Positions 1,470 through 61,231 of a DNA stretch of 64,000 bases are shown here, piece after piece. Source of the stretch: Azolla caroliniana (Eukaryota > Plantae > Polypodiophyta); the NCBI GenBank assembly GCA_043228905.1, contig JBHGNT010000016.1, positions 186,001-250,000 of the forward strand. The letters are read 5' to 3'. The notes beneath the pieces are model-generated. The model searched no databases, was not told the origin of the DNA, and was given only the letters and a program-made list of their open reading frames with translations. Made by a program: the position numbers and the translations under genes. Each line of letters starts with the position of its first letter. Within the stretch, counting starts at the first letter, position 1.

Positions 1470-1490
1470 TTTAGGGTTTAGGGTTTAGGG
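1470..1490 (+). repeat. Interstitial plant telomeric repeat (TTTAGGG)3 inside a satellite monomer
   Basis: TTTAGGG x3, flanked by a duplicated TTTAATTTA (1465-1473 and 1491-1499); the monomer is 26 bp longer than normal. Confidence 0.95.
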
Positions 1491-7539: not shown

Positions 7540-7560
7540 TTTAGGGTTTAGGGTTTAGGG
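7540..7560 (+). repeat. Second copy of the interstitial (TTTAGGG)3
   Basis: Same insertion at the same monomer position, 6070 bp after the first copy. Confidence 0.95.
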
Positions 7561-9590: not shown

Positions 9591-9593
9591 AAC

Positions 9594-9605
9594 TGGTATC
9601 AGAGC
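9594..9605 (+). promoter_or_regulatory. Primer-binding site (tRNA-iMet)
   Basis: TGGTATCAGAGC, 3 nt after the LTR end; this is the canonical plant iMet PBS. Confidence 0.95.
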
Positions 9606-9620
9606 GAACTGCTGCAGAAA

Positions 9621-13694: not shown

Positions 13695-13702
13695 AGGGGG
13701 AG
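13688..13702 (+). promoter_or_regulatory. Copia polypurine tract, overlapping the ORF stop codon
   Basis: GAAGTGAAGGGGGAG immediately before the 3' LTR; it contains the TGA at 13692-13694. Confidence 0.9.
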
Positions 13703-13704
13703 TT

Positions 13705-14316
13705 TGTTGGGATTAAGGTCCCTTCGATGGGATGGTCGGATGTCGGAGATGAATGCCGACGAGCCCGGTTTCGGTTTCGGAACCGGATGATGAAGACCCC
13801 GGCTTCGGAGCCGGATGACGAATGTACCCAGGGAGAGATCCGGATGCAGGGACATATCCGTGAATATGTTTGCTAAGAACCCCCTGAGGCTATAGTTGTA
13901 AATAGCCCCAAAGTCATATATGTATAAATATGACTTAGGGCAATTGGTTTTATGGTTGTTGATCATTTTTCTGTTTTTCCACTCTAGAGGAGTGAAGAGA
14001 GAGCAGCCGCGAGAGAGAGAGAGGGATAGAGCGTGAGAGAGGAAGAGGTCGACGCCTCTGTGTATTTCCGCCGCCTGTGGCGAGGACAGCGAGCTCAAGG
14101 TCGTCGCCTTGCAGCTCGCCATTGTATACTTCTCTGTATAGTGTTGGTTTGGAGTCTTGTCCTCCCGTGGTTTTTCCCGTCTAGGGTTTTCCACGTTAAT
14201 CCCTGTGTGTTCGCGTTTTTGTTTCTCTTTGTGGTTCCTATTTTCTGCTGCATCGATTCGCGCTTACTCGGTTGTGGCCGAGGGAAGAAGGTTAATCGTG
14301 TGGTTGATTCCTTACA
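13705..14316 (+). repeat. Copia 3' LTR (612 bp)
   Basis: Identical to the 5' LTR by eye except C13772 versus T9046. Confidence 0.97.
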
Positions 14317-17300
14317 GGATGAACATTTTAATTTACCTACTAGCGCTTGTCAACTCCTTCCTCAAATTTGCTAATTTCTTCATGTCTCTCGACCTGAGTT
14401 TCAAAATCTTGATTTTTTAATTCCATAACATAGCTAGCGTTGTTAGCTTCGATTCGCATGTTTGAACACAGAAATCCGGTATCACACGAGCCTGGTATGA
14501 ACATTTCATTTACTAACGCGCTCTTCTCCACTACCTCCTCAAATTTGCTAATTTCTTCATGTCTCTCGACCTGAGTTTCAAAATTTTGATTTTTTAATTA
14601 CATAACATAGCTAGCGCTGTTAGCTTCGATTCACATGTTTGAACACAAAAATCCGATATCACACGAGCCGCGGATGAACATTTTAATTTACCTACTAGCG
14701 CTTGTCAACTCCTTCCTCAAATTTGCTAATTTCTTCATGTCTCTCGACCTTAGTTTCAAAATCTTGATTTTTTAATTCCATAACATAGCTAGCGTTGTTA
14801 GCTTCGATTCGCATGTTTGAACACAGAAATCCGGTATCACACGAGCCTGGTATGAACATTTTAATTTACTAACGCGCTCTTCTCCACTACGTCCTCAAAT
14901 TTGCTAATTTCTTCATGTCTCTCGACCTGAGTTTCAAAATCTTGATTTTTTAATTCCATAACATAGCTAGCGTTGTTAGCTTCGATTCGCATGTTTGAAT
15001 ACAAAAATCCGATATCCCACGAGCCACGGATGAACATTTTAATTTACCTACTAGCGCTTGTCAACTCCTTCCTCAAATTTGCTAATTTCTTCATGTCTCT
15101 CGACCTGAGTTTTAAAATCTTGATTTTTTAATTCCATATCAGAGCTAGCGTTGTTAGCTTCGATTCGCATGTTTGAACACAGAAATCTCATATCACACGA
15201 GCTAGGTATGAACATTTTAATTTACTAACGCGCTCTTCTCCACTACCTCCTCAAATTTGCTAATTTCTTCATGTCTCTCGGCCTGAGTTTCAAAATCTTG
15301 ATTTTTTAATTCCATAACATAGCTAGCGTTGTTAGCTTCGATTCGCATGTTTGAACACAAAAATCCGATATCACACGAGCTAGGTATGAACATTTTAATT
15401 TACTAACGCGCTCTTCTCCACTACCTCCTCAAATTTGCTAATTTCTTCATGTCTCTCGACTTGAGTTTCAAAATCTTGATTTTTTAATTCCATAACATAG
15501 CTAGCGCTGTTAGCTTCGATTCACATGTTTGAACACAAAAATCCGGTATCACACGAGCCACGGATGAACATTTCAATTTACCTACTAGCGCTTGTCAACT
15601 CCATCCTCAAATTTGCTAATTTCTTCATGTCTCTCGACCTGAGTTTCAAAATCTTGATTTTTTAATTCCATAACATAGCTAGCGCTGTTAGTTTCGATTC
15701 GCACGTTTGAACACAAAAATCCGATATCACACGAGCCACGTATGAACATTTTAATTTACCTACTAGCGCTTGTCAACACCCTCCTCAAATTACTTAATTT
15801 CATCATGTCTCTCGACGTGAGTTTCAAAATCTTGATTTTTTAATTCCATATAAGAGCTAGCGTTGTGAGCTTCGATTGCCATGTTTGAAAATAAAAATCC
15901 GATATCACACGAGCCGGATATGAACATTTTAATTTACCTTCTAGCGCTTGTCAACTCCCTCCTCAAATTTGTTAATTTCTTCATGTCTCTCGACCTAAGT
16001 TTCAAAATCTTGATTTTTTAATTCCATATCAGAGCTAGCGTTGTTAGCTTCGATTCACATGTTTGAACACAAAAATCCGATATCACACTAGCCACGTATG
16101 AACATTTTAATTTACCTACTAGCGCTTGTCAACTCCCTCCTAAAATTTGCTAATTTCTTCATGTCTCTCGACCTGAGTTTCAAAATCTTGATTTTTCAAT
16201 TCCATATCAGAGCTAGCGTTGTTAGCTTCGATTCGCATGTTTGAACACTAAAATCCGATATCACAAGAGCCTGGTATGAACATTTTAATTTACTAACGCG
16301 CTCTTCTCCACTACGTCCTCAAATTTGCTAATTTCTTCTTGTCCCTCGACCTGAGTTTCAAAATCTTGATTTTTCAATTCCATATCAGAGCTAGCATTGT
16401 TAGCTTCGATTCGCATGTTTGAACACAAAAATCCGATACCACACGAGCCACGTATGAACATTTTAATTTACCTACTAGAGCTTGTCAACTCCCTCCTCAA
16501 ATTTGCTAATTTCTTCATGTCTCTCGACCTGAGTTTCAAAATCTTGATTTTTTAATTCCATATCAGAGCTAGCATTGTTAGCTTCAATTCGCATGTTTGA
16601 ACACAGAAATCCGATATCACACGAGCCTGGTATGAACATTTTAATTTACTAACGCGCTCTTCTCCACTACCTCCTAACATTTGCGAATTTCTTCATGTCT
16701 CTCGACCTCAGTTACAAAATCTTGATTTTTCAATTCCTGATCAGAGCTAGCGTTCTTAACTTCGATTCGCATGTTTGAACACAAAAATCCGATATCATAC
16801 GAGCTACGTGTAAACATTTTAATTTACCTACTAGCGCTTGTCAACACCCTCCTCAAATTTGCTAATTTCTTCATGTCTCTCGACCTGAGTTTCAAAATCT
16901 TGATTTTTCAATTCCATATCAGAGCTAGCGTTGTTAGCTTCGATTCGCATGTTTGAACACAAAAATCCGGTATCACACGAGCCACGTATGAACATTTTAA
17001 TTTACCTACTAGCTCTTGTCAACTCCCACCTGAAATTTGCTAATTTCTTCATATCTCTCGACCTGAGTTTCAAAATCTTGATTTTTTAATTCCATATCAG
17101 AGCTAGCGTTGTTAGCTTTGATTCGCATGTTTGAACACAAAAATCCGATATCACACTAGCCTTGGATGAATATTTTAATTTACTAACGCGCTCTTCTCCA
17201 CTACGTCCTCAAATTTGCTAATTTCTTCATGTCTCTTGACCTGAGTTTCAAAATCTTGATTTTTTAATTCCATAACATAGCTAGCGCTGTTAGCTTCGAT

Positions 17301-20300
17301 TCACATGTTTGAACACAAAAATCCGATATCACACGAGCCACGGATGAACATTTTAATTTACCTACTAGCGCTTGTCAACTCCCACCTGAAATTTGCTAAT
17401 TTCTTCATATCTCTCGACCTGAGTTTGAAAATCTCTTCATATCTCTTCATATCAGAGCTAGCGTTTTTAGCTTCGATTCGCATGTTTGAACACAAAAATG
17501 TGATATCACACGAGCCTTGGATGAATATTTTAATTTACTAACGCGCTCTTCTCCACTACGTCCTCAAATTTGCTAATTTCTTCATGTCTCTCGACTTGAG
17601 TTTCAAAATCTTGATTTTTCAATTCCATATCAGAGCTAGCGTTGTTAGCTTCGATTCGCAAGTTTGAACACAAAAATCCGATATCACACGAGCGTGGTAT
17701 GAACCTTTTCATTTACTAACGCGCTCTTCTCCACTACCTCCTCAAATTTGCTAATTTCTTCATGTCTCTCGACCTGAGTTTCAAAATCTTGATTTTTCAA
17801 TTCCATATTAGAGCTAGCATTGTTAGCTTCGATTCGCATGTTTGAACACAAAAATCCGATACCACACGAGCCACGTATGAACATTTTAATTTACCTACTA
17901 GCGCTTGTCAACACCGTCCTCAAATTTGCTAATTTCTTCATGTCTCTCGACCTGAGTTTCAAAATCTTGATTTTTCAATTCCATATCAGAGCTAGCGTTG
18001 TTAGCTTCGATTCGCATGTTTGAACACAAAAATCCGGTATCACACGAGCCACGTATGAACATTTTAATTTACCTACTAGCTCTTGTCAACTCCCACCTGA
18101 AATTTGCTAATTTCTTCATATCTCTCGACCTGAGTTTCAAAATCTTGATTTTTTAATTCCATATCAGAGCTAGCGTTGTTAGCTTTGATTCGCATGTTTG
18201 AACACAAAAATCCGATATCACACTAGCCTTGGATGAATATTTTAATTTACTAACGCGCTCTTCTCCACTACGTCCTCAAATTTGCTAATTTCTTCATGTC
18301 TCTTGACCTGAGTTTCAAAATCTTGATTTTTTAATTCCATAACATAGCTAGCGCTGTTAGCTTCGATTCACATGTTTGAACACAAAAATCCGATATCATA
18401 CGAGCCACGGATGAACATTTTAATTTACCTACTAGCGCTTGTCAACTCCCACCTGAAATTTGCTAATTTCTTCATATCTCTCGACCTGAGTTTGAAAATC
18501 TCTTCATATCTCTTCATATCAGAGCTAGCGTTTTTAGCTTCGATTCGCATGTTTGAACACAAAAATGTGATATCACACGAGCCTTGGATGAATATTTTAA
18601 TTTACTAACGCGCTCTTCTCCACTACGTCCTCAAATTTGCTAATTTCTTCATGTCTCTCGACTTGAGTTTCAAAATCTTGATTTTTCAATTCCATATCAG
18701 AGCTAGCGTTGTTAGCTTCGATTCGCATGTTTGAACACAAAAATCCGGTATCACACGAGCCACGTATGAACATTTTAATTTACCTACTAGCTCTTGTCAA
18801 CTCCCACCTGAAATTTGCTAATTTCTTCATATCTCTCGACCTGAGTTTCAAAATCTTGATTTTTTAATTCCATATCAGAGCTAGCGTTTTTAGCTTCGAT
18901 TCGCATGTTTGAACACAAAAATGTGATATCACACGAGCCTTGGATGAATATTTTAATTTACTAACGCGCTCTTCTCCACTACGTCCTCAAATTTGCTAAT
19001 TTCTTCATGTCTCTTGACCTGAGTTTCAAAATCTTGATTTTTTAATTCCACATTAGAGCTAGCGTTGTTAGCTTCGATTCGCATGTTTGAACACAAAAAT
19101 CCGATATCACACGAGCCACGGATGAACATTTTAATTTACCTACTAGCGCTTGTCAACTCCCTCCTCAAATTTGCTAATTTCTTCATGTCTCTCGACCTGA
19201 GTTTCAAAATCTTGATTTTTTAATTCCATAACATAGCTAGCATTGTTAGCTTCAATTCGCATGTTTGAACACAGAAATCCGATATCACACGAGCTAGGTA
19301 TGAACATTTTAATTTACTAACGTGCTCTTCTCCGCTACGTCCTCAAATTTGCTAATTTCTTCATGTCTCTCAACCTAATTTTCAAAATCTTGATTTTTTA
19401 ATTCCACATTAGAGCTAGCGTTGTTAGCTTCGATTCGCATGTTTGAACACAAAAATCCGATATCACACGAGCCTGGTATGAACATTGTAATTTACTAACG
19501 CGCTCTTCTCCACTACGTCCTAAAATTTGCTAATTTCCTCATGTCTCTCCACCTAAGTTTAAAAATCTTGATTTTTTTATTCCATATCAGTGCTAGTGTT
19601 GTTAGCTTCGATTCGCATGTTTGAACACAAAAATCCGATATCACCCAAGCCTGGTATGAACATTTTAATTTACTAACGCGCTCTTCTCCACTACCTCCAC
19701 AAATTTGCTAATTTTTCATGTCTCTCGACCTGAGTTTCAAAATCTTGATTTTTTAATTCCATAACATAGCTAGCGCTGTTAGCTTCGATTCACATGTTTG
19801 AACGCAAAAATCCGATATCACACAAACCACGGATGAACATTTTAATTTACCTACTAGCGATTGTCAACTCCCTCCTCAAATTTGCTAATTTGTTCATGTC
19901 TCTCGACCTGAGTTTTAAAATCTTGATTTTTTAAGTCCATATCAGAGCTAGCGTTGTTAGCTTCGATTCGCATGTTTGAACACAGAAATCTGATATCACA
20001 CGAGCTAGGTATGAACATTTTAATTTACTAACGCGCTCTTCTCCACTACCTCCTCAAATTTGCTAATTTCTTCATGTCTCTCGACCTGAGTTTCAAAATC
20101 TTGATTTTTTAATTCCATAACATAGCTAGCGCTGTTAGCTTCGATTCACATGTTTGAACACAAAAATCCGATATCACACGAGCTAGGTATGAACATTTTA
20201 ATTTACCTACTAGCTCTTCTCCACTACCTCCACAAATTTGCTAATTTCTTCATGTCTCTCGACCTGAGTTTCAAAATCTTGATTTTTTAATTCCATAACA

Positions 20301-23300
20301 TAGTTAGCGCTGTTAGCTTCGTTTCACATGTTTGAACACAAAAATCCGATATCACACGAGCTAGGTATGAACATTTTAATTTACTAACGCGCTCTTCTCC
20401 ACTACGTCGTCAAATTTTCTAATTTCTTCATGTCTCTCGACCTGAGTTTCAAAATCTTGATTTTTTAATTCCATAACATAGTTAGCGTTGTTAGCTTCGA
20501 TTCGCATGTTCGAATACAAAAATCCGATATCCCACGAGCCACGGATGAACATTTTAATTTACCTACTAGCGCTTGTCAACTCCCTCCACAAATTTGCTAA
20601 TTTCTTCATGTCGCTCGACCTGAGTTTAGAAATCTTGATTTTTCAATTCCATGTCACAGCTAGCGTTGTTAGCTTCGATTCACATGTTTGAACACAAAAA
20701 TCCGATATCACACGAGCCACGTATGAACATTTTAATTTACCTACTAGCGCTTGTCAACTCCCTCCCGAAATTTGCTAATTTCTTCATGTCTCTCGACCCG
20801 AGTTTCAAAATCTTGATATTTCAATTCCATATCAGAGCTAGCGTTGTTAGCTTCGATTCGCATGTTTGAACACAAAAATCCGATATCACACGAGCCACGT
20901 ATGAACATTTTAATTTACCTACTAGCGCTTGTCAACACCCTCCTCAAATTACTTAATTTCATCATGTCTCTCGACCTGAGTTTCAAAATCTTGATTTTTT
21001 AATTCCATATAAGCGCTAGCGTTGTGAGCTTCGATTGCCATGTTTGAAAATAAAAATCTGATATCACACGAGCCAGATATGAACATTTTAATTTACCTTC
21101 TAGCGCTTGTCAACTCCCTCCTCAAATTTTTTAATTTCTTCATGTCTCTCGACCTAAGTTTCAAAATCTTGATTTTTTAATTCCATATCAGAGCTAGCGT
21201 TGTTAGCTTCGATTCGCATGTTTGAACACAGAAATCCGATATCACACGAGCCTGGTATGAACATTTTAATTTACTAACGCGCTCTTCTCCACTACCTCCT
21301 AACATTTGCGAATTTCTTCATGTCTCTCGACCTCAGTTTCAAAATCTTGATTTTTCAATTCCAGATCAGAGCTAGCGTTCTTAACTTCGATTCGCATGTT
21401 TGAACACAAAAATCCGATATCATACGAGCTACGTGTAAACATTTTAATTTACCTACTAGCGCTTGTCAACACCCTCCTCAAATTTGCTAATTTCTTCATG
21501 TCTCTCGACCTGAGTTTCAAAATCTTGATTTTTCAATTCCATATCAGAGCTAGCGTTGTTAGCTTCGATTCGCATGTTTGAACACAAAAATCCGGTATCA
21601 CACGAGCCACGTATGAAAATTTTAATTTACCTACTAGCTCTTGTCAACTCCCACCTGAAATTTGCTAATTTCTTCATATCTCTCGACCTGAGTTTGAAAA
21701 TCTTGATTTTTTAATTCCATATCAGAGCTAGCGTTTTTAGCTTCGATTCGCATGTTTGAACACAAAAATCCGATATCACACGAGCCTTGGATGAATATTT
21801 TAATTTACTAACGCGCTCTTCTCCACTACGTCCTCAAATTTGCTAATTTCTTCATGTCTCTCGACTTGAGTTTCAAAATCTTGATTTTTGAATTCCATAT
21901 CAGAGCTACCGTTGTTAGCTTCGATTCGCAAGTTTGAACACAAAAATCCGATATCACACGAGCGTGGTATTAACCTTTTCATTTACTAACGCGCTCTTAT
22001 CCACTACCTCCTCAAATTTGCTAATTTCTTCATGTCTCTCGACCTGAGTTTCAAAATCTTGATTTTTGAATTCCATATCAGAGGTAGCGTTGTTAGCTTC
22101 GATTCGCATGTCTGAACACAAAAATCCGATATCACACGAGCCACGGATGAATATTTTAATTTACCTACTAGCGCTTGTCAACTCCCTCCTCAAATTTGCT
22201 AATTTCTTCATGTCTCTCGACCTGAGTTTGAAAATCTTGATTTTTTAATTCCATACCAGAGCTGGCGTTGTTAGCTTCGATTCGCATGTTTGAACACAAA
22301 AATCCGATATCACACTAGCCAAGTATGAACATTTTAATTTACCTACTAGCGCTTGTCAACTCCCTCCTAAAATTTGCTAATTTCTTCATGTCTCTCGACC
22401 TGAGTTTCAAAATCTTGATTTTTCAATTCCATATCAGAGCTAGCGTTGTTAGCTTCGATTCGCATGTTTGAACACTAAAATCCGATATCACAAGAGCCTG
22501 GTATGAACATTTTAATTTACTAACGCGCTCTTCTCCACTACGTCCTCAAATTTGCTAATTTCTTCATGTCCCTCGACCTGAGTTTCAAAATCTTGATTTT
22601 TCAATTCCATATCAGAGCTAGCGTTGTTAGCTTCGATTCGCATGTTTGAACACAAAAATCCGATACCACACGAGCCACGTATGAACATTTTAATTTACCT
22701 ACTAGCGCTTGTCAACTCCCTCCTCAAATTACTTAATTTCTTCATGTCTCTCGACCTGAGTTTCAAAATCTAGATTTTTTAATTCCATATCAGAGCTAGC
22801 GTTGTTAGCTTCGATTCGCATGTTTGAACACAAAAATCCGATATCACACTAGCCTTGGATGAATATTTTAATTTACTAACGCGCTCTTCTCCACTACGTC
22901 CTCAAATTTGCTAATTTCTTGATGTCTCTCGACCTGAGTTTCAAAATCTTGATTTTTTAATTCCATAACATAGCTAGCGCTGTTAGCTTCGATTCACATG
23001 TTTGAACACAAAAATCCGATATCACACGAGCCACGGATGAACATTTTAATTTACCTACTAGCGCTTGTCAACTCCCTCCTCAAATTTGCTAATTTCTTCA
23101 TGTCTCTCGACCTGAGTTTCAAAATCTTGATTTTTTAATTCCATAATATAGCTAGCATTGTTAGCTTCAATTCGCATGTTTGAACACAGAAATCCGATAT
23201 CACACGAGCTAGGTATGAACATTTTAATTTACTAACGTGCTCTTCTCCACTACGTCCTCAAATTTGCTAATTTCTTCATGTCTCTCAACCTAATTTTCAA

Positions 23301-24139
23301 AATCTTGATTTTTTAATTCCATATTAGAGCTAGCGTTGTTAGCTTCGATTCGCATGTTTGAACACAAAAATCCGATATCACACGAGCCTAGTATGAACAT
23401 TTTAATTTACTAACGCGCTCTTCTCCACTACGTCCTCAAATTTGCTAATTTCTTCATGTCTCTCCACCTAAGTTTAAAAATCTTGATTTATTTATTCCAT
23501 ATCAGTGCTAGTGTTGTTAGCTTCGATTCGCATGTTTGAGCACAAAAATCCGATATCACCCAAGCCTGGTATGAACATTTTAATTTACTAACGCGCTCTT
23601 CTCCACTACGTCCTCAAATTTGCTAATTTTTCATGTCTCTCGACGTGAGTTTCAAAATCTTGATTTTTTAATTCCATAACATAGCTAGCGCTGTTAGCTT
23701 CGATTCACATGTTTGAACACAAAAATCCGATATCACACGAGCTAGGTATGAACATTTTAATTTACTAACGCGCTCTTCTCCACTACCCCCACAAATTTGC
23801 TAATTTCTTCATGTCTCTCGACCTGAGTTTAAAAATTTTGATTTTTGAATTCCATATCAGAGCTAGCGTTGTTAGCTTCGATTCGCATGTCTGAACACAA
23901 AAATCCGATATCACACGAGCCACGGATGAATATTTTAATTTACCCACTAGCGCTTGTCAACTCCCTCCTCAAATTTGCTAATTTCTTCATGTCTCTCGAC
24001 CTGAGTTTCAAAATCTTGATTTTTTAATTCCATACCAGAGCTAGCGTTGTTAGCTTCGATTCGCATGTTTGAACACAAAAATCCGATATCACACTAGCCA
24101 CGTATGAACATTTTAATTTACCTACTAGCGCTTGTCAAC
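14317..24139 (+). repeat. 178-bp satellite array, segment 2 (~55 monomers; mixed subfamily zone)
   Basis: Resumes in register after the TSD; ATAACATAG and ATATCAGAG monomers are intermixed from ~15.8 kb. Confidence 0.98.
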
Positions 24140-24261
24140 TGTCATAACTAGACTCGAACCCATAACCTTTTGTTACACGGGTCGAGACTTTACCATTAGG
24201 TTATGAGTTGTAATTTGAAGGATATTATTTTCATTTAGGTTTTATTAGGAAATTGATGTAT

Positions 24262-24311
24262 ATTCCAGATTTCTCTGGAACATTCTAGAAACTTCAGGAG
24301 TATTCCTGAAG
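24262..24311 (+). promoter_or_regulatory. Heat-shock element (alternating nGAAn/nTTCn array) in U3
   Basis: TTC-ca-GAT-tt-CTC-tg-GAA-ca-TTC-ta-GAA-ac-TTC-ag-GAG-ta-TTC-ct-GAA: 10 in-phase pentamers, 7 perfect, 4 of them consecutive. Confidence 0.8.
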
Positions 24312-24315
24312 ACAC

Positions 24316-24322
24316 TATAAAA
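24316..24322 (+). promoter_or_regulatory. TATA box of the chromovirus LTR
   Basis: TATAAAA in the context CACTATAAAAGG. Confidence 0.8.
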
Positions 24323-24429
24323 GGAGGCGCAAGGCATTAGTTCGAACCAAATCGGTTCAACGCCAGTCTTAAGCCTTCTAACTACTGTTGTATATCTTCC
24401 GTCATATAATACATATATCTTTCGCACCA

Positions 24430-24433
<4 letters not shown>

Positions 24434-24465
<32 letters not shown>
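24434..24465 (+). repeat. (TC)n microsatellite in the LTR R/U5 region
   Basis: About 16 TC units. Confidence 0.9.
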
Positions 24466-24469
<4 letters not shown>

Positions 24470-24604
24470 ACTCATTCCTTCTCTCAAAGTTCGACACCTC
24501 TCATAGTACTAATCCTTCTCTGTCTTAGTACTATTCCCCAACAATAGTACTAATCCTTCTTTTAGTACTAATTCCTTCTCTGCCTTAATAGAGTTCCTGA
24601 CAGT

Positions 24605-24616
24605 TTGAACCGATTT
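24605..24616 (+). promoter_or_regulatory. Self-priming PBS (complementary to the predicted 5' end of the element's own transcript)
   Basis: TTGAACCGATTT is the exact reverse complement of AAATCGGTTCAA (24349-24360), which starts 33 nt after the TATA start. No TGG-type tRNA PBS is present. Confidence 0.8.
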
Positions 24617-24690
24617 CCCCTACTAGTCTCCCTCTTCCTTCTGTCTCTCTCCTTTCCTACTAGTCTCTTATTTCCCTTTTCCTTCATCCC

Positions 24691-25860
24691 ATGGCCACCG
24701 TTAGCGCTGAAGAGTATCAATCCGTTTTCTCGGAATTTCAATGCTTGAAAGAGAAGTTTCATGCTTTGGAACAAGAAAATCAACGCTTGTTGGGGGATCT
24801 TCAGCAAATTTCCTTAGAAAAGCAGCAAACGCAACAACAGCATGGGGAACTTGCGTTACGCGTGCAACAACTCGAAGCAACCATCGTAGCAATGCAACAA
24901 CAAGGGCACGGAGCACAAGGGATTCATAAAGAACCCAAGATTGGCCTTCCCACGAAGTTCGATGGAACGCGATCGCAGTTTAGAGGGTTTCTTAACCAGG
25001 TACGGTTAGTTATTCAAATGCATCCGTCCCAATATCCCACCGATGCATCACGAGTGGGTTTAGTAGGCACGTTGTTAAATGGCTCAGCATTAGCATGGTT
25101 CGCTCCGCTACTAGAAAAGGAATCTCCAGTACTAAATAATTTTGAAGAATTCATAAGTGAGTTTAAAGCATGTTTTGGAGATACTGACAGCATAAGGACT
25201 GCAATCAACAAAATCCGGCGATTACGCCAAGGTGACCGTCCAGCCTCCGCATATGCTGCAGATTTCCGCCTACTCGCCGCCGATATCCCCTGGGATGATC
25301 AAGCATTGATGGAGCAGTTCCGCTATGGTCTACGCAACGATGTCAAGGATTTACTCTTGACTTTCCCTGAAGAGCCAAAATCATTAACAGAAGCAATCAG
25401 TCGAGCGGTCAGATGTGACAACCGCCTCTTCGAGCGACGTTCGGAACGACAATTTCAGATGCCGAGGGCAAGATCCGAGCCTACCTATGCCTCAGTGGTA
25501 GCGAAACCTTTTCAAAGGGAGTCACATAATGCGCCTCCAGTAAGTACTCCAACTCCAATGGAAATTGACACTACACGTCGTCGTGGGCCGCTATCGGAGG
25601 AGGAAAAGCAACGACGCCGAACAAACCGATTATGCCTTTATTGCGGTGGACCAGGGCATATCGCGATAAACTGTCCCCATAGACCAAGAAGGCAGGTAAA
25701 CCAAGTCATTGTTAGTTCTGACTATACTAAACCCGAGTCTATTTCAGTAGGAATCTCTGATAATCCTCATAGTCATAATAGTCCTAATAGTACTAATAGT
25801 CCGAATCTCGCAAACAAATTTGATGTCCTTAGCCAATTAGAAGAAGAGTTAAACGACTAA
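24691..25860 (+). CDS. gag: Chromovirus Gag, 389 aa
   Basis: N-terminal coiled coil; PTKFDG...FLNQV...GSALAW capsid region (sushi/PEG10/RTL1-like); PMEID motif; CCHC knuckle CLYCGGPGHIAINC. Confidence 0.93.
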   Translation: MATVSAEEYQSVFSEFQCLKEKFHALEQENQRLLGDLQQISLEKQQTQQQHGELALRVQQLEATIVAMQQQGHGAQGIHKEPKIGLPTKFDGTRSQFRGFLNQVRLVIQMHPSQYPTDASRVGLVGTLLNGSALAWFAPLLEKESPVLNNFEEFISEFKACFGDTDSIRTAINKIRRLRQGDRPASAYAADFRLLAADIPWDDQALMEQFRYGLRNDVKDLLLTFPEEPKSLTEAISRAVRCDNRLFERRSERQFQMPRARSEPTYASVVAKPFQRESHNAPPVSTPTPMEIDTTRRRGPLSEEEKQRRRTNRLCLYCGGPGHIAINCPHRPRRQVNQVIVSSDYTKPESISVGISDNPHSHNSPNSTNSPNLANKFDVLSQLEEELND

Positions 25861-25925
25861 GTCCAGCCAAAATAGGAGCCGTTTGGTTGGACAGCCCTAG
25901 ATCTGTGCAGCCCATTAGTGGTTCC
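25848..25925 (+). promoter_or_regulatory. Putative -1 ribosomal frameshift signal
   Basis: G_TTA_AAC in gag frame (25848-25854); 6-nt spacer; 11-bp stem 25861-25871/25882-25892; loop GGAGCC can pair with GGTTCC (25920-25925). Confidence 0.7.
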
Positions 25926-28900
25926 ATTCCCTCTAAGCAAGTTAGTGATGTGTTCGTAGTCCAAGTAGCAGTTAGTACTAAAAGTACCCCTCCAGTACAT
26001 ACCTTAGCCCTTCTAGATTCCGGAGCTAATTCTTGCTTCATGGATAGGAATTTTGCCCGAGCTCATCAGATATCTCTCAGAAAGCTCCCATGTCCAGCCT
26101 CAGTAGTAGTCATTGATGGTCGTCCCATTGCTTCTGGTAATATCATAGAAGAGTCGGAACCCGTTAATATTGTCCTAGATAACTTAACATGTGTAGTATC
26201 ATTTAATATTATTAGTATTCCAGAACATCCCATAGTTTTAGGATTACCATGGTTCGAGTTACATGACCCAGACATAGATTGGAGGACAAGGGAAATCCGG
26301 TTGCGACAAACCCAAGGATCTACCCAGAAGGTTGCAACCATTTCGCTACGTCAGTTGCGTGAGGAAGGGCGCAAGGAGGAAATGTTTCTCTTTGCAATAT
26401 CAGTACAACCCTCCAGCACCACCAAAGAGGAGTCCACCGTTCAACTTCCCGAGAAGTATCGTCAGTATGCTGATGTGTTCGATAAAGTACAAGCCAACAC
26501 ACTTCCTCATCATCGGCCGTACGACTGCGCCATCGACTTACAACCGGGAAAAGAGCCGCCATGGGGGCCGATCTACAATTTGTCACCAACCGAGCTAGAA
26601 GTCCTTCGAGCCTATATAGAGGAGAATTTGGAGAACGGTTTCATTCGGCATTCGAAATCTCCAGCCGGCGCACCCATTTTCTTCGTCAAGAAAAAAGATG
26701 GCTCGCTTCGACTCGTTGTAGATTACCGTGGCTTGAATAAGGTCACAGTAAGAAATAGGTATGCTCTTCCCCTTATCTCAAGTCTTTTAGAACGGATCAA
26801 CGGTGCCAGGTTCTTCACGAAGATCGACTTACGAGGAGCCTATAACCTCGTACGGATCCGACCAGGAGATGAATGGAAGACCGCGTTTCGCACCAGATAT
26901 GGGCACTTCGAGTATACGGTCATGCCGTTCGGACTCACTAATGCGCCGGCAGTCTTCCAGCACATGGCGAATGATATATTTCGAGATCTCTTGGATGATT
27001 TTTTGATCATCTATTTGGATGATCTACTGGTTTATTCAAAGACCCAAGAAGAACATGATTCTCATGTACTATTAGTACTAAAACGACTTCGAGAACATGG
27101 TCTGTATGCAAAGTTAGAGAAATGTAGTTTCGGGTGCAACCAAGTGGAGTTTCTCGGCTATGTCATCTCCTCAGAAGGCATATCTATGGACCCAGCCAAG
27201 GTCAAAACGGTGATAGAATGGCACACTCCGCGTTCGGTGCGGGATGTGCAATGCTTCCTAGGCTTTGCAAATTTCTACCGGAAGTTCATACAAAATTACT
27301 CAAAAATTGTGCTGCCTCTCACACAGCTCACCAGGAAGGGACAATCATTCATTTGGTCTAAAGAGACGGACATGGCTTTCGAGAGTCTTAAGAAGGCGTT
27401 TACATCAGCTCCAATTTTAGGTCATGTGGATCCGGAAAAACCATTCATTATCGAAGCTGATGCATCGGATTTCGCATTGGGGAGCATTCTGTCACAACAG
27501 GGTAACGACGAGAAGCTACATCCTGTGGCTTTCCACTCCCGTAAGTTTGACGCCGCCGAAATCAACTACGAAATTCATGATAAAGAGCTATTAGCAATAG
27601 TTGATTCTTTTATGCAATGGAGGCATTTCCTGGAGGGATCTCCTCATCAGGTCACTGTATTCAGTGACCACAAGAACCTTGCCTACTTTCAAGATGCTCG
27701 TGTACTGAATCGACGTCAAGCTCGGTGGGCCCACTTCCTCACACGCTTCGACTTCAAAATTACATATCGTCCGGGGAAGCACCAAGGGAAGGCAGATGCA
27801 TTATCACGGCGTTCGTATCTAACACCACGTCCCGGTGAGCCAGCTTTCGATAACCAGAAGCAAGTAATCTTGGGTCCAGCACGACTGCAAGCAGCACAGA
27901 TCTTTGACATGCCCGTGGATTCCGACATTACCAATACTATACGTGAGGACTTGAAGACTGACGCTTTCGCCCAAGCTATACTAGCACAAATTGACCCCTC
28001 TCGAGCGTCATGTTCACAATCACAATCACCAGGTACGGATTATCGGCAATTCAAATACTGTGATGGATTACTCTTCTTTAAAGAACTTTTGTATGTTCCT
28101 AATGGTTCTTGCCGCCTTCGAGTAGTACAAAACTGCCATGACACATATACAGCAGGACATTTTGGTAGTACTAAAACATTAGATTTAGTACAACGATCAT
28201 TCTGGTGGCCCCGTATGCGACAATTTGTCGAAGATTTTGTTCGGACTTGCGATACATGCTGCAGAGCGAAAATGCCAAGACATCATCCATATGGTTTATT
28301 AGAACCATTACCAATTCCAAGCAAGCCATGGCAATCCATTGCTCTTGACTTCATTACAGATCTTCCAGTCTCTAAGGGATTCAGTGCGATTCTCACAGTG
28401 GTGGATCGATATACGAAGATGGCTCATTTCTTACCATGTACTAAAGAAATATCTAGTGAAGACACCGCCGAAATTGTCATGCGGGAAGTATGTCGGCATC
28501 ATGGACTCCCTGATAATATCATCAGCGATCGTGGACCCCAGTTTGTGTCAAAATTCTGGAAGCACCTTTTTAAAATGCTGAAGGTCACTTGTAACCTCTC
28601 CTCCGGCTACCACCCACAAACCGACGGTCAAGCCGAACGAACAAATCAAACACTGGAGCAGTATCTGCGGTGCTTTCTCAACTATCATCAGAATGACTGG
28701 GCAGATATTCTTCAGTTCGCCGAATTTGCCTATAATAACGCTATCCACGCATCGACTAAAGTCACGCCATTCTACGCTTATACGGGATATCATCCCCGGT
28801 GGTGTGTCCTTGAAACCCCAGAAGTGTCCACAAATCCTTGCGCGGAGGATCGTTTGGAGCGGTTACGCAAGATACAAGCGGATTTATCTACTCAACTCCA

Positions 28901-29444
28901 GCAAGCTCAACAATCACACAAGGACTACGCAGATCGTCATCGACTTCCATCCAGTTTTAACATTGGAGATCGGGTGTGGCTGCTACGACGACACATCAAG
29001 ACTACTCGCCCATGTGAGAAGTTGGATTATCGACGATTAGGTCCTTTCCGTATTATCGGGAAGATTAATGATGTCGCTTTTCGTCTCGAGCTACCTCCGC
29101 AACTTCGGATACACCCGGTGTTTCATAGTTCTCTCCTCGAACCCTATCACGAGAGCACTATCCCAGGACGTACTATACAACCTCCACCTCCTATCGAGCT
29201 CGAAGATGGACCTGAGTATGAGGTCGCTGCCATCCTCGATTCCAAGATTGTTCGCAACAAGCTCTACTATCTAGTCGATTGGCTAGGATATAGTCCCAGC
29301 GAGCGTACTTGGGAACCGATCGAGAATGTGACCAATGCTCGTGCTCTTCTAGAAGACTTCCATCGACGATATCCCGAGAAACCGAGTCCTCAATCCAAAA
29401 CGACTCGTGAAACTCGTCGTTTTAAAGGGGGGATAGTGTCATAA
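25887..29444 (+). CDS. pol: Chromovirus Pol (PR-RT-RH-INT-chromodomain), probably translated as a Gag-Pol fusion; frame open from 25833
   Basis: Protease LLDSGA; RT YLDD; RNase H ADASD...ELLA; integrase HHCC (H..GHFG...CDTC), DDE core and GPF motif; chromodomain EYEVAAILDSK...YLVDWLGY...TWEP. The stop codon lies inside the 3' LTR. Confidence 0.96.
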   Translation: MDSPRSVQPISGSIPSKQVSDVFVVQVAVSTKSTPPVHTLALLDSGANSCFMDRNFARAHQISLRKLPCPASVVVIDGRPIASGNIIEESEPVNIVLDNLTCVVSFNIISIPEHPIVLGLPWFELHDPDIDWRTREIRLRQTQGSTQKVATISLRQLREEGRKEEMFLFAISVQPSSTTKEESTVQLPEKYRQYADVFDKVQANTLPHHRPYDCAIDLQPGKEPPWGPIYNLSPTELEVLRAYIEENLENGFIRHSKSPAGAPIFFVKKKDGSLRLVVDYRGLNKVTVRNRYALPLISSLLERINGARFFTKIDLRGAYNLVRIRPGDEWKTAFRTRYGHFEYTVMPFGLTNAPAVFQHMANDIFRDLLDDFLIIYLDDLLVYSKTQEEHDSHVLLVLKRLREHGLYAKLEKCSFGCNQVEFLGYVISSEGISMDPAKVKTVIEWHTPRSVRDVQCFLGFANFYRKFIQNYSKIVLPLTQLTRKGQSFIWSKETDMAFESLKKAFTSAPILGHVDPEKPFIIEADASDFALGSILSQQGNDEKLHPVAFHSRKFDAAEINYEIHDKELLAIVDSFMQWRHFLEGSPHQVTVFSDHKNLAYFQDARVLNRRQARWAHFLTRFDFKITYRPGKHQGKADALSRRSYLTPRPGEPAFDNQKQVILGPARLQAAQIFDMPVDSDITNTIREDLKTDAFAQAILAQIDPSRASCSQSQSPGTDYRQFKYCDGLLFFKELLYVPNGSCRLRVVQNCHDTYTAGHFGSTKTLDLVQRSFWWPRMRQFVEDFVRTCDTCCRAKMPRHHPYGLLEPLPIPSKPWQSIALDFITDLPVSKGFSAILTVVDRYTKMAHFLPCTKEISSEDTAEIVMREVCRHHGLPDNIISDRGPQFVSKFWKHLFKMLKVTCNLSSGYHPQTDGQAERTNQTLEQYLRCFLNYHQNDWADILQFAEFAYNNAIHASTKVTPFYAYTGYHPRWCVLETPEVSTNPCAEDRLERLRKIQADLSTQLQQAQQSHKDYADRHRLPSSFNIGDRVWLLRRHIKTTRPCEKLDYRRLGPFRIIGKINDVAFRLELPPQLRIHPVFHSSLLEPYHESTIPGRTIQPPPPIELEDGPEYEVAAILDSKIVRNKLYYLVDWLGYSPSERTWEPIENVTNARALLEDFHRRYPEKPSPQSKTTRETRRFKGGIVS
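29424..29436 (+). promoter_or_regulatory. Chromovirus polypurine tract
   Basis: AAAGGGGGGATAG directly before the TGTCA of the 3' LTR. Confidence 0.9.
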
Positions 29445-29697
29445 CTAGACTCGAACCCATAACCTTTTGTTACACGGGTCGAGACTTTACCATTAGGTTA
29501 TGAGTTGTAATTTGAAGGATATTATTTTCATTTAGGTTTTATTAGGAAATTGATGTATATTCCAGATTTCTCTGGAACATTCTAGAAACTTCAGGAGTAT
29601 TCCTGAAGACACTATAAAAGGAGGCGCAAGGCATTAGTTCGAACCAAATCGGTTCAACGCCAGTCTTAAGCCTTCTAACTACTGTTGTATATCTTCC
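29437..29697 (+). repeat. Truncated chromovirus 3' LTR (261 bp)
   Basis: Identical by eye to 24140-24400; about 202 bp of R/U5 are missing. Confidence 0.93.
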
Positions 29698-29757
29698 ACT
29701 ACCTCCTAAAATTTGCTAATTTCCACTACTGTTGTATATCTTCCACTGTTGTATATC
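29698..29757. other. Templated-filler repair junction
   Basis: Patchwork of a satellite piece (29695-29723) and two LTR-end copies (29725-29744 and 29745-29757), joined through short overlaps. Confidence 0.85.
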
Positions 29758-32700
29758 ACACGAGCTAGGTATGAACATTTTAATTTACTAACGCGCTCTT
29801 CTCCACTACCTCCTAAAATTTGCTAATTTCTTCATTGTCTCTCGACCTGAGTTTCAAAATCTTGATTTTTCAATTCCATATCAGAGCTAGCGTTTTTAGC
29901 TTCGATTCGCATGTTTGAACACAAAAATCCAATATCACACGAGCCTTGGATGAATATTTTAATTTACTTACGCGCTCTTCTCCACTACGTCCTCAAATTT
30001 GCTAATTTCTTCATGTCTCTCGACTTGAGTTTCAAAATCTTGATTTTTCAATTCCATATCGGAGCTACCGTTGTTAGCTTCGATTCGCAAGTTTGAACAC
30101 AAAAATCCGATATCACACGAGCGTGGTATGAACCTTTTCATTTACTAACGCGCTCTTCTCCACTACCTCCTCAAATTTGCTAATTTCTTCATGTCTCTCG
30201 ACCTGAGTTTCAAAATCTTGATTTTTTAATTCCATATCAGAGCTAGCGTTTTTAGCTTCGATTCGCATGTTTAAACACAGAAATCCGATATCACACGAGC
30301 TAGGTATGAACATTTTAATTTACTAATGCGCTCTTCTCCACTACCTCCTCAAATTTGCTAATTTCTTCATTGTCTCTCGACCTGAGTTTCAAAATATTGA
30401 TTTTTCAATTCCATATCAGAGCTAGCGTTGTTATCTTCGATTCGCATGTTTGAACACAAAAATCCGGTATCACACGAGCCACGTATGAACATTTTAATTT
30501 ACCTACTAGCTCTTGTCAACTACCACCTGAAATTTGCTAATTTCTTCATATCTCTCGACCTGAGTTTGAAAATCTTGATTTTTTAATTCCATATCAGAGC
30601 TAGCGTTTTTAGCTTCGATTCGCATGTTTGAACACAAAAATCCGATATCACACGAGCCTTGGATGAATATTTTAATTTATAACGCGCTCTTCTCCACTAC
30701 GTCCTCAAATTTGCTAATTTCTTCATGTCTCTCGACTTGAGTTTCAAAATCTTGATTTTTCAATTCCATATCAGAGCTAGCGTTGTTAGCTTCGATTCGC
30801 AAGTTTGAACACAAAAATCCGATATCACACGAGCGTGGTATGAACCTTTTCATTTACTAACGCGCTCTTCTCTACTACCTCCTCAAATTTGCTAATTTCT
30901 TCATGTCTCTCGACCTGAGTTTCAAAATCTTGATTTTTTAATTCCATATCAGAGCTAGCGTTTTTAGCTTCGATTCGCATGTTTAAACACAAAAATCCGA
31001 TATCACACGAGCTAGGTATGAACATTTTAATTTACTAACGCGCTCTTCTCCACTACCTCCTAAAATTTGCTAATTTCTTCATTGTCTCTCGATCTGAGTT
31101 TCAAAATCGTGATTTTTCAATTCCATATCAGAGCTAGCATTGTTAGCTTCGATTCGCATGTTTGAACACAAAAATCCGATATCACACGAGCCTTGGATGA
31201 ATATTTTAATTTACTAACGCGCTCTTCTCCACTACGTCCTCAAATTTGCTAATTTCTTCATGTCTCTCGACCTGAGTTTCAAAATCTTGATTTCTCAGTT
31301 CCATATCAGAGCTACCGTTGTTAGCTTCGATTTGCAAGTTTGAACACAAAATTCCGATATCACACGAGCGTGGTATGAACCTTTTCATTTACTAACGCGC
31401 TCTTCTCCACTACCTCCTCAAATTTGCTAATTTCTTCATGTCTCTCGACCTGAGTTTCGAAATCTTGATTTTTCAATTCCATATCAGAGCTAGCGTTGTT
31501 AGCTTCGATTCGCATGTCTGAACACAAAAATCCGATATCACACGAGCCACGGATGAATATTTTAATTTACCTACTAGCGCTTGTCAACTCCCTCCTCAAA
31601 TTTGCTAATTTCTTCATGTCTCTCGACCTGAGTTTCAAAATCTTGATTTTTTAATTCCATATCAGAGCTAGCGTTGTTAGCTTCGATTCGCATTTTGAAC
31701 ACAGAAATCCGATATCACACGAGCTAGGTATGAATATTTTAATTTACTAACGCGCTCTTCTCCACTACGTCCTCAAATTTGCCTATTTCTTCATGTCTCT
31801 CGACTTGAGTTTCAAAATCTTGATTTTTCAATTCCATATCAGAGCTACCGTTGTTAGCTTCGATTCGCAAGTTTGAACACAAAAATCCGATATCACACGA
31901 GCGTGGTATGAACCTTTTCATTTACTAACGCGCTCTTCTCCACTACCTCGTAAAATTTGCTAATTTCTTCATGTCTCTCGACCTGAGTTTCAAAATCTTG
32001 ATTTTTTAATTCCATATCAGAGCTAGCATTTTTAGCTTCGATTCGCATGTTTAAACACAGAAATCCGATATCACACGAACTAGGTATGAACATTTTAATT
32101 TACTAACGCGCTCTTCTCCACTACCTCCTAAAATTTGCTAATTTCTTCATTGTCTCTCGACCTGAGTTTCAAAATCTTGATTTTTTAATTCCATATCAGA
32201 GCTAGCGTTGTTAGCTTCGATTCGCATGTTTGAACAGAGAAATCCGATATCACACGAGCTAGGTATGAATATTTTAATTTACTAACGCGCTCTTCTCCAC
32301 TACGTCCTCAAATTTGCCTATTTCTTCATGTCTCTCGACTTGAGTTTCAAAATCTTGATTTTTCAATTCCATATCAGAGCTACCGTTGTTAGCTTCGATT
32401 CGCAAGTTTGAACACAAAAATCCAATATCACACGAGCGTGGTATGAACCTTTTCATTTACTAACGCGCTCTTCTCCACTACCTCCTAAAATTTGCTAATT
32501 TCTTCATGTCTCTCGACCTGAGTTTCAAAATCTTGATTTTTTAATTCCATATCAGAGCTAGCGTTTTTAGCTTCGATTCGCATGTTTAAACACAGAAATC
32601 CGATATCACACGAGCTAGGTATGAACATTTTAATTTACTAACGCGCTCTTCTCCACTACCTCCTAAAATTTGCTAATTTCTTCATTGTCTCTCGACCTGA

Positions 32701-35700
32701 GTTTCAAAATCTTGATTTTTCAATTCCATATCAGAGCTAGCGTTTTTAGCTTCGATTCGCATGTTTGAACACAAAAATCCAATATCACACGAGCCTTGGA
32801 TGAATATTTTAATTTACTTACGCGCTCTTCTCCACTACGTCCTCAAATTTGCTAATTTCTTCATGTCTCTCGACTTGAGTTTCAAAATCTTGATTTTTCA
32901 ATTCCATATCAGAGCTACCGTTGTTAGCTTCGATTCGCAAGTTTGAACACAAAAATCCGATATCACACGAGCGTGGTATGAACCTTTTCATTTACTAACG
33001 CGCTCTTCTCCACTACCTCCTCAAATTTGCTAATTTCTTCATGTCTCTCGACCTGAGTTTCAAAATCTTGATTTTTTAATTCCATATGAGAGCTAGCGGT
33101 TTTAGCTTCGATTCGCATGTTTAAACACAGAAATCCGATATCACACGAGCTAGGTATGAACCTTTTAATTTACTAACGCGCTCTTCTCCACTACCTCCTC
33201 AAATTTGCTAATTTCTTCATTGTCTCTCGACCTGAGTTTCAAAATCTTGATTTTTCAATTCCATATCAGAGCTAGCGTTGTTATCTTCGATTCGCATGTT
33301 TGAACACAAAAATCCGGTATCACACGAGCCACGTATGCACATTTTAATTTACCTACTAGCTCTTGTCAACTCCCACCTGAAATTTGCTAATTTCTTCATA
33401 TCTCTCGACCTGAGTTTGAAAATCTTGATTTTTTAATTCCATATCAGAGCTAGCGTTGTTAGCTTCGATTCGCATGTTTGAACACAAAAATCCGATATCA
33501 AAAGAGCCTGGTATGAACATTTTAATTTACTTACGCGCTCTTCTCCACTACGTCCTCAAATTTGCTAATTTCTTCATGTCCCTCGACCTGAGTTTCAAAA
33601 TCTTGATTTTTCAATTCCATATCAGAGCTAGCGTTGTTAGCTTCGATTCGCATGTTTGAACACAAAAATACGATACCACACGAGCCACGTATGAACATTT
33701 TAATTTACCTACTAGCGCTTGTCAACTCCCTCCTCAAATTACTTATTTTCTTCATGTCTCTCGACCTGAGTTTCAAAATCTTGATTTTTTAATTCCATAC
33801 CAGAGCTAGCGTAGTTAGCTTCGATTCGCATGTTTGAACACAAAAATCCTCATTTCACACTAGCCACGTATGAACATTTTAATTTACCTACTAGCGCTTG
33901 TCAACTCCCTCCTAAAATTTGCTAATTTCTTCATGTCTCTCGACCTGAGTTTCAAAATCTTGATTTTTCAATTCCATATCAGAGCTAGCGTTGTTAGCTT
34001 CGATTCGCATGTCTGAACACAAAAATCCGATATCACACGAGCCACGTATGAATATTTTAATTTACCTACTAGCGCTTGTCAACTCCCTCCTCAAATTACT
34101 TAATTTCTTCATGTCTCTCGACCTGAGTTTCAAAATCTTGATTTTTTAATTCCATATAACAGCTAGCGTTGTTAGCTTCGATTGCCATGTTTGAACATAA
34201 AAATCCGATATCACACGAGCCAGGTATGAACATTTTAATTTACATTCTAGCGCTTGTCAACTCCCTCCTCAAATTTGTTAATTTCTTCATGTCTCTTGAC
34301 CTGAGTTTCAAAATCTTGATTTTTTTATTGCATATCAGAGCTAGCGTTGTTAGCTTCGATTCCCATGTTTGAACACAGAAATCCGATATCACACGAGCCA
34401 CGTATGAACATTTTAATTTACCCACTAGCGCTTGTCGACTCCCTCCTCAAATTTGCTAATTTCTTCATGTCTCTCGACCTGAGTTTCAAAATCTTGGTTT
34501 TTTAATTCCATAACAGAGCTAGCGTTGTTAGCTTCGATTCGCATGTTTGAACACAAAAATCCGATATCACACGAGCCACGGATGAACATTTTAATTTACC
34601 TACTAGCGCTTGTTAACTTCCTCCTCAAATTTGCTAATTTCTTCATATCTCTCGACCTGAGTTTCAAAATCTTTATTTTATAATTCCATATCAGAGCTAG
34701 CGTTTTTAGCTTCGATTCGCATGTTTAAACACAGAAGTCCAATATCACACGAGCGTGGTATGAACATTTGCTAACGCGCTCTTCTCCACTACCTCCTAAC
34801 ATTTGTGAATTTCTTCATGTCTCTCGACCTGAGTTTCAAAATCTTGATTTTTCAATTCCATATCAGAGCTAGCGTTGTTAACTTCGATTCGCATCTTTGA
34901 ACACAAAAATCCGATATCATACGAGCTACGTATGAACATTTTAATTTACCTACTAGCGCTTGTCAACACCCTCCTCAAATTTGCTAATTTCTTCATGTCT
35001 CTTGACCTGAGTTTCAAAATCTTGATTTTTTTATTGCATATCAGAGCTAGCGTTGTTAGCTTCGATTCGCATGTTTGAACACAGAAATCCGATATCACAC
35101 GAGCCTTGGATGAATATTTTAATTTACTAACGCGCTCTTCTCCACTACGTCCTCAAATTTGCTAATTTCTTCATGTCTCTCGACTTGAGTTTCAAAATCT
35201 TGATTTTTCTTTTCCATATCAGAGCTACCGTTGTTAGCTTCGATTCGCAAGTTTGAACACAAAAATCCGATATCACACGAGCGTGGTATGAACCTTTTCA
35301 TTTACTAAAGCGCTCTTCTCCACTACCTCCTCAAATTTGCTAATTTCTTCATGTCTCTCGACCTGAGTTTCAAAATCTGGATTTTTCAATTCCATAACAG
35401 AGCTAGCGCTGTTAGCTTCGATTCGCATGTTTGAACACAAAAATCCGATATCACACGAGCCTTGGATGAATATTTTAATTTACTAACGCGCTCTTCTCCA
35501 CTACGTCCTCAAATTTGCTAATTTCTTCATGTCTCTCGACTTGAGTTTCAAAATCTTGATTTTTCAATTCCATATCAGAGCTACCGTTGTTAGCTTCGAT
35601 TCGCAAGTTTGAACACAAAAATCCAATATCACACGAGCGTGGTATGAACCTTTTCATTTACTAACACGCTCTTCTCCACTACCTCCTCAAATTTGCTAAT

Positions 35701-61180: not shown

Positions 61181-61186
61181 CAGTTT

Positions 61187-61198
61187 TGGCGACCACGA
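61187..61198 (+). promoter_or_regulatory. Primer-binding site, probably tRNA-Arg
   Basis: TGGCGACCACGA, complementary to a ...GTGGTCG-CCA tRNA-Arg(UCG)-type 3' end. Confidence 0.72.
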
Positions 61199-61231
61199 TT
61201 CCTGCTTTCTCGCAGCGAACGACGGTAATGG

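Follow-up and report, generated by a model that had tools for sequence, protein, structure and literature searches.

The LTRs of a young chromovirus in Azolla caroliniana join three parts in a conserved layout, namely tRNA-type promoter boxes that lie antisense to the element, a swappable stress module that is here a heat-shock element (HSE), and a TATA box with a self-primer, and this three-part LTR is the novel part of what we report. The design likely reads as a Pol III/TFIIIC site, then the stress module, then TATA. The window, by which we mean the whole 64,000-nt stretch of DNA that was analysed, holds one such element at 24140-29697, which is 5.56 kb long, has gag and pol open and is embedded in a 178-bp satellite. 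Taken as a whole, the sequence makes it likely in our view that the promoter belongs to a young Tcn1-type chromovirus that primes itself, would be driven by HSF on heating and has TFIIIC boxes that perhaps shield it. The parts of the element and its flanks are as follows.

24140-24602, plus strand: 5' LTR, 463 bp, TGTCA...TGACA (30 of 30 genome LTR matches have these starts and ends)
24151-24160, minus strand: tRNA-type B box, antisense to the element
24193-24203, minus strand: tRNA-type A box, antisense, with 34 nt separating its GG from the TTC of the B box, a distance also seen in host tRNA genes
24210-24261, no strand: AT-rich spacer from A box to HSE, 21% divergent among sister LTRs, presumed TFIIIB seat
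24262-24311, no strand: HSE array, 10 units, 7 perfect, with a conserved 4-unit core at 24278-24295
24316-24322, plus strand: TATA box; in four primer types the self-primer follows it by 32-33 nt
24349-24360, plus strand: predicted RNA 5' end and 12-nt self-primer, an exact PBS complement that covaries with the PBS across families
24408-24413, plus strand: AATACA, a likely near-upstream signal for poly(A) addition (2 of 5 sister LTRs have AATAAA), missing from the shortened 3' LTR
24605-24616, plus strand: self-priming PBS, not a tRNA PBS, complement of the self-primer
24691-25860, plus strand: gag ORF, with capsid and CCHC knuckle
25833-29444, plus strand: pol ORF in the -1 frame, PR-RT-RH-INT-SH3-chromodomain, its stop codon inside the 3' LTR
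29205-29387, plus strand: chromodomain, with aromatic residues at three presumed cage positions
29424-29436, plus strand: polypurine tract, from sequence
29437-29697, plus strand: 3' LTR, shortened to 261 bp and identical to the 5' LTR over its length
Within the 3' LTR: B box 29448-29457, A box 29490-29500, HSE 29559-29608, TATA 29613-29619, predicted start 29646
29698-29760, no strand: junction patchwork, satellite mixed with short re-copied stretches of LTR; the target-site duplication is lost
14319-24139, plus strand: 178-bp satellite, 5' flank
29753-44573, plus strand: 178-bp satellite, 3' flank

On a pentamer grid, 24262-24311 resolves into ten alternating units (aTTCc, aGATt, tCTCt, gGAAc, aTTCt, aGAAa, cTTCa, gGAGt, aTTCc and tGAAg), seven of them perfect, with 27 of 30 core bases matching and a longest perfect run of four units at 24278-24295. 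TATAAAA starts at 24316, 5 nt past the last GAA and 4 nt past the last full pentamer, and an identical HSE block stands in the 3' LTR at 29559-29608, offset by 5297 from the 5' LTR copy. We shuffled the 261 nt common to both LTRs 3000 times, preserving dinucleotides: no 10-unit grid then exceeded five perfect units and one shuffle reached five, while any perfect 3-unit HSE arose in 15; the HSE of 24262-24322 is an above-chance array. The sequence-only reading had claimed ten in-phase units with seven perfect, an end 5 nt before TATAAAA and a further copy in the 3' LTR, all of which hold, and had allowed room for about three HSF trimers, which stands as an upper bound only, the core that is conserved across families being four units long.

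That core emerges from 18 distinct sister LTRs (72-86% identical), in which 10 of 216 core bases differ in the four central units, as compared with divergences of 21% for the AT spacer, 22% for the TATA-to-start stretch and 24% for the middle part of the tRNA piece. When all seven perfect units are set against the spacers, the difference is 50/378 (13%) vs 72/360 (20%; Fisher p=0.017). This contrast is modest, units 9 and 10 being imperfect in most sisters, and the common ancestry of the sisters means that neither the counts nor the p value come from independent sequences. None of the 18 sister LTRs has a perfect unit 9, all 18 having C at 24303, and the last base of unit 10 (A, 24310) is kept in only 3 of 18. 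Since it is the four central units that are conserved, the conserved element is a 4P HSE, to which the HSE-chromovirus family has added TATA-proximal units. In Brassicaceae copias a 4P HSE is described as accommodating two trimers and goes with the strongest induction by heat, and an HSE is no guarantee of activity against silencing (PMC5059998). We infer that two HSF trimers would sit on the core here, perhaps three.

The host genome has 10 HSF-domain (PF00447) matches, and its own heat-shock promoters offer a yardstick for the LTR. Upstream regions of 700 nt, available for 25 of 33 host HSP20 matches and perhaps shorter than some of the promoters, gave a best HSE grid of 6/10 and have the word TTCTAGAAAC in common with the LTR array, which is as strong as the best among these 25 small-HSP regions. 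Host small-HSP promoters with 5-6 perfect units and a TATA found place the HSE 20-49 nt from TATA; the last LTR unit, at 4 nt, is closer than this and so may clash with TFIID. Genome-wide, perfect 5-unit HSEs numbered 1066 matches (some overlapping) vs 3 in the control, and clade LTR marks were present at 23 of 24 sampled non-overlapping loci, all from contig C1. We judge heat induction of the LTR through HSF, as predicted from these motifs, to be quite probable.

How the element primes itself bears on where its RNA begins. The 12-nt stretch two bases after the LTR is the exact complement of LTR 24349-24360, and a primer/PBS complement of at least 11 nt, in four main covarying types, was found in 72 of 92 junction rows (redundant copies included), with 5 of the remaining rows matching over 9 nt and 15 showing none. 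Nearly all self-primers in these rows lie 32-33 nt downstream of a TATA box, and because primer/PBS covariation fixes the start site, the TATA at 24316 is very likely the working one. The self-primer predicts starts at 24349 and 29646, in agreement with an earlier guess of a start near 29646. At the integrase C-terminus lies a chromodomain (PF00385, E 2e-14, pol 1129-1179) whose Y, W and Y align with F/Y, W and Y of CDY chromodomains, presumably the aromatic-cage positions; together with the order of the pol domains this bears out the earlier call of a gypsy chromovirus. A quick RT-RH tree (23 rows) places the element in a 17-row group with fungal and vertebrate Tf1-sushi elements (SH-aLRT 100), outside which Closterium and Tanacetum (seed-plant) rows fall; none of the 120 matches listed is a named Tcn1 reference. 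The element is a self-priming Tcn1-type chromovirus, and Tf1-type self-priming has been predicted for the Tcn1 clade (PMC6317226). Membership of the ONSEN/COPIA78 family was rejected, the domains (RVT_1, in the order RT-RH-INT) not following the Ty1/copia order. A relative that is 76% identical in RT-RH (P0032) has a dUTPase domain listed in pol. At three further loci (L031, L036 and L042, around 1500-1560) U3, TATA and self-primer run directly into the reverse complement of the LTR U5 end, and in L031 the primer-to-PBS stretch is inverted; these rearrangements are likely by-products of the primer/PBS inverted repeat.

The 523-Mb genome contains 543 exact copies of the 47-base HSE-TATA stretch (control 0), and the family consists of about 270 very young, near-identical, dispersed elements. 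We examined 21 whole elements, in which LTR pairs differ at 10 of 9639 bases; 20 of them lie on C1-C4 and were chosen among the first 100 places listed, and one was known to sit in the satellite. Among these, 5-bp TSDs flank 19, the HSE-TATA block is unchanged in both LTRs of 19, and both reading frames are full length in 12. With a substitution rate of 1.3e-8, the LTR pairs would date the insertions to some tens of thousands of years. The 5' flanks contain TE-protein matches in 12 of 21 elements and repeats matching other loci in 19 of 21, and such repeat-rich flanks would fit chromodomain-guided insertion into heterochromatin. Haplotig duplication of the 24140-29697 copy was rejected, the LTR-identical copy on C8 having other flanks and its own TSD. 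On C2, at 12.246-12.278 Mb, HSE-chromovirus copies form a tandem and nested array with about 3190-bp spacing.

A metagenome-contig search with the integrase-chromodomain protein, which is blind to the LTR, returned 76 loci, of which 36 had enough protein, LTR and primer motif (40 were dropped) and, with the 24140-29697 element, made up a module tree of 37 rows. Their LTRs carried an HSE in 28 cases, a G-box/RY module in 6 and neither in 3. The HSE label needs four changes on the tree, at least three of them forced by well-supported branches, and one HSE group is nested among G-box/RY rows on the integrase tree; this tree is built on a 169-aa fragment with near-identical rows included, recombination is possible, and gains are not distinguishable from losses. 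Because HSE arrays are clade-wide, the array is not a one-off ONSEN-like gain, and the earlier proposal of an independent ONSEN-like case, as a single-family event, finds no support.

HSE-less families fill the same slot before TATA with repeats of GCCA(CG/AG/AA)TGGC and with CATGCA, a G-box/ABRE-like plus RY layout that we take to be that of ABA- and ABI3-driven LEA promoters. The two kinds of array are mostly mutually exclusive in the slot, L190 having both, and 30 genome loci selected on the primer motif alone contained a 3-unit HSE in none, G-box-like words in 29 and RY words in 30. The ABA reading is weaker because the sister module is mostly GCCA(AG/AA)TGGC and not canonical ACGTGGC, and we lean only slightly towards a response of this module to ABA or desiccation. 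An 18-base piece of it has 646 exact matches in the genome and is common, letter for letter, to the chromovirus G-box families and to L322, a 6.8-kb non-chromovirus Ty3 element whose pol is 23% identical. L322 (683-8611; C1, about 906-914 kb) has 1099-bp LTRs that are 99.9% identical, a tRNA-type PBS, antisense A/B boxes as two tandem units and, ahead of TATA, a G-box/RY array, a likeness that suggests promoter exchange or convergence between distant lineages. Three other loci (L262, L268 and L277) combine A/B boxes and an HSE-like array with no gag/pol match nearby, two of them (L262 and L268) having a TATA; they may derive from another family, as non-autonomous elements or solo copies. As controls, 31 LTR stretches of other lineages (few families; PF24626 matches, the best 30 being mostly other Ty3 lineages) yielded no 3-unit HSE and no A/B geometry.

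Upstream of this slot, the first 65 LTR bases resemble, on the minus strand, the D-loop to T-loop part of a tRNA gene, with the A box at 24203-24193 and the B box at 24160-24151. The GG-to-TTC distance is 34 in the LTR and 34-35 in 24 of 30 scored host tRNAs (39 distinct sequences). We scored this antisense geometry (34-35 nt) in 39 LTR types, consisting of 38 from metagenome loci after removal of near-copies and stretches <130 nt, plus the 24140-29697 element, and found it in 23 vs 58 of 11700 shuffles, with 1 of 39 on the sense strand; the other 16 types fail this strict test. The same pattern has 4604 matches genome-wide vs 0 in the control, and among those listed most of 30 sampled are LTRs of the Tcn1-type clade. 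Both HSE families and G-box/RY families keep the boxes. Of the other Ty3/copia LTRs sampled, which come from no more than a handful of families, most thrive without them. A source tRNA is not pinned down, best local scores against an incomplete set of 39 host tRNAs scattering over Arg, Lys, Asn, Ile, Gln and His. A conserved short antisense Pol III RNA was considered as a product and not adopted, the first T4 lying outside the LTR and depending on the flank. On the strength of the boxes and their spacing, TFIIIC binding seems to us rather likely. Many Repbase LTRs hold tRNA-like pieces that were not pursued there, and autonomous Helenus partners are expected to use ordinary Pol II LTRs, according to the cited passages (PMC10886601). 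A literature search, with subscription papers and Repbase entries lying outside it, turned up no account of autonomous LTRs with antisense tRNA boxes and none of an HSE/G-box-RY swap.

In the mechanism that we propose, heat-activated host HSF trimers would likely bind the HSE array and RNA polymerase II would fire from the adjacent TATA with a start at 24349, after which the element RNA would fold back and prime itself and the chromodomain integrase would place new copies in heterochromatin. The promoter would have to stay reachable there; TFIIIC bound to the A/B boxes and TFIIIB seated on the AT-rich sequence beside the HSE would together set up a barrier of the tDNA kind that separates the promoter from the flank. 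In S. pombe tDNA barriers need TFIIIC and Pol III and are orientation-independent (PMC2040200), and the cited part of a plant barrier review names tDNA/TFIIIC barriers only for yeast and animals (PMC9540200). We put forward a barrier, anti-silencing function of the A/B boxes as a tentative suggestion. Just as tentative is the wider idea that heterochromatin-inserting chromoviruses carry their own tRNA-derived barrier together with a plug-in slot for heat (HSF) or ABA-desiccation (bZIP plus B3) modules, which would be swapped between families, shared with a non-chromovirus lineage and used to divide stress niches.

A reading that we place just short of an even balance keeps a working HSE and takes the tRNA-like piece for an old SINE or tRNA relic, a weak antisense Pol III promoter or a nucleosome-free signal, with no barrier. 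The cloverleaf is indeed eroded, its anticodon stem being 40% paired vs 92% in host tRNAs and its T stem 73% vs 97%; ARAGORN called no tRNA gene in 25 loci and Rfam (E<=10) gave no tRNA in 8 loci, only chance miRNA-type matches on the palindromic arrays, so that a functional tRNA gene in the LTR was rejected; the LTR has no fixed T-run terminator, and LTR ends are constrained by integrase and RT in any case. A mere relic is harder to square with boxes and spacing that are kept while the intervening 30 nt diverge (11% in the B box vs 24% in the middle), with the persistence of the boxes in families whose stress module has changed, or with their recurrence, twice over, in the LTR of the non-chromovirus Ty3 element L322. 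We regard it as unlikely, by comparison, that the TTCTAGAA array is a slippage-amplified palindromic repeat that HSF does not bind or that is permanently silenced, with amplification in a developmental window unrelated to heat. Arrays in sister families do grow by 10-nt duplications, out-of-phase blocks included, and LTRs in repeats are normally methylated, yet the strict 5-nt alternation with conserved cores, the use of the same word in host small-HSP promoters, the fixed place just upstream of TATA and the exchange of the slot for another recognisable stress module all speak against this reading.

That the LTR promoters drive heat-induced transcription of centromeric satellite and so affect centromere chromatin strikes us as very improbable. 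In its favour, the 3' LTR of the 24140-29697 copy, which stops 52 nt past the start site, keeps HSE, TATA and start, whereas all sequence beyond +52 is gone and with it the likely poly(A) signal, and a second copy lies about 90 kb off in the same array. Against a centromeric role, the arrays lie near contig starts (C2, C3, C6 and C16) and on C16 beside telomere repeats, where the array occupies roughly 10 kb to 500 kb and adjoins the telomere repeats of the contig end. The satellite has 13240 matches, and among those listed the ones on C2, C3 and C6 are mostly near contig starts and none is on C1 or C4; it may be a subtelomere or a telocentric centromere. Satellite flanks were found at 0 of 20 further elements on C1-C4 and at 2 of 30 best LTR matches, these being the 24140-29697 copy and the one about 90 kb away, and because of these counts satellite location is not a family trait. 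The earlier link between element and satellite is accordingly incidental, and centromere targeting, as a CRM-like concentration of copies in centromeric satellite, was rejected on the same counts. Because the 3' LTR has lost its likely poly(A) signal, read-through from LTR into satellite is plausible for this one copy only.

Several other features were observed in and around the satellite. The junction at 29698-29760 consists of microhomology and short templated LTR/satellite copies, with the satellite resuming almost in register, and looks like end-joining repair that trimmed an insertion out of the array. Short TTTAGGG tracts at window positions 1470-1494 and 7540-7564, within a larger repeated block, fit a telomere-adjacent array. 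At the C16 start (L282:100-135), the telomere repeats contain a stretch that we take to be a putative library adaptor, which marks the extreme contig end as of low quality. A Ty1/copia element at 8979-14316 in the satellite has one 1370-aa stop-to-stop frame, a tRNA-Met-type PBS and a 5-bp TSD, and its LTR has no HSE and no A/B boxes. The start of a third, GC-rich LTR element, likely Ty3 and non-chromovirus, occupies 60761-64000.

Elements with related features are described, in the passages cited here, from several other lineages. ONSEN/COPIA78, TERESTRA and COPIA37 of Brassicaceae likewise carry a 4P-type HSE in the LTR upstream of the start, and their HSE strength evolves by small changes, as here (PMC5059998); the ONSEN-type hallmark of at least four adjacent nGAAn units in U3 is present in our element as a perfect run of four. 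The ONSEN group is Ty1/copia with measured heat induction, whereas the element here is a self-priming Ty3 chromovirus with a predicted response and a clade-wide HSE that is interchangeable with G-box/RY. Ty3 elements of the Mag/CsRN1/Gmr1 groups in Macrostomum lignano share a canonical LTR HSE and repeated gains, although they are animal, non-chromovirus families with reporter-validated HSE dependence and, in the cited passages, no tRNA boxes are described (PMC12801592). Cryptococcus TCN3 and TCN12 show heat-dependent mobility and one or two putative LTR HSEs, with an HSF link proposed (PMC12810828); Tcn1 of the same fungus names the plant clade. The Tcn1 clade (Tf1/sushi group, SM-Tcn1) matches our element in its two ORFs, size of ~5.5 kb, ~450-bp LTR, 5-bp TSD, aromatic-cage chromodomain and self-priming; it has been described from mosses and club-mosses, and the cited passages mention no HSE, tRNA box or module swap (PMC2864245, PMC6317226). 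RLG2 of Physcomitrium is a gypsy element of a seed-free plant induced by heat and ABA, for which the cited passages give no cis-element (PMC7466625). Helenus/Cassandra TRIMp3 elements have conserved tRNA-derived A/B boxes in the LTR and no functional tRNA, as here, but are short and non-autonomous (under about 1.3 kb vs a 5.56-kb autonomous element), and in the entries examined, including the Selaginella one, the tRNA part lies in sense as judged by eye and is a likely promoter, whereas here it is antisense and upstream of the Pol II promoter (PMC10886601). Membership of Helenus/TRIMp3 was rejected on strand (antisense 23 of 39, sense 1 of 39) and on size.

Because HSF capture by LTR elements is already known, the HSE taken alone would make this one more member of that set. 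What matters more is that a plant Ty3 clade with widespread HSE arrays supplies most of the sampled strong HSEs of one genome, and that its sister families with another stress module in the same slot constitute a natural swap experiment. The tRNA promoter boxes, conserved in antisense in these autonomous LTRs, could protect the elements in cis against silencing. Yeast and animals are known to have barriers of the tDNA/TFIIIC type, which seem to have received few tests in plants, and if the barrier reading is true, the thousands of copies in this genome would provide a ready-made test of tDNA-type barriers in plants.
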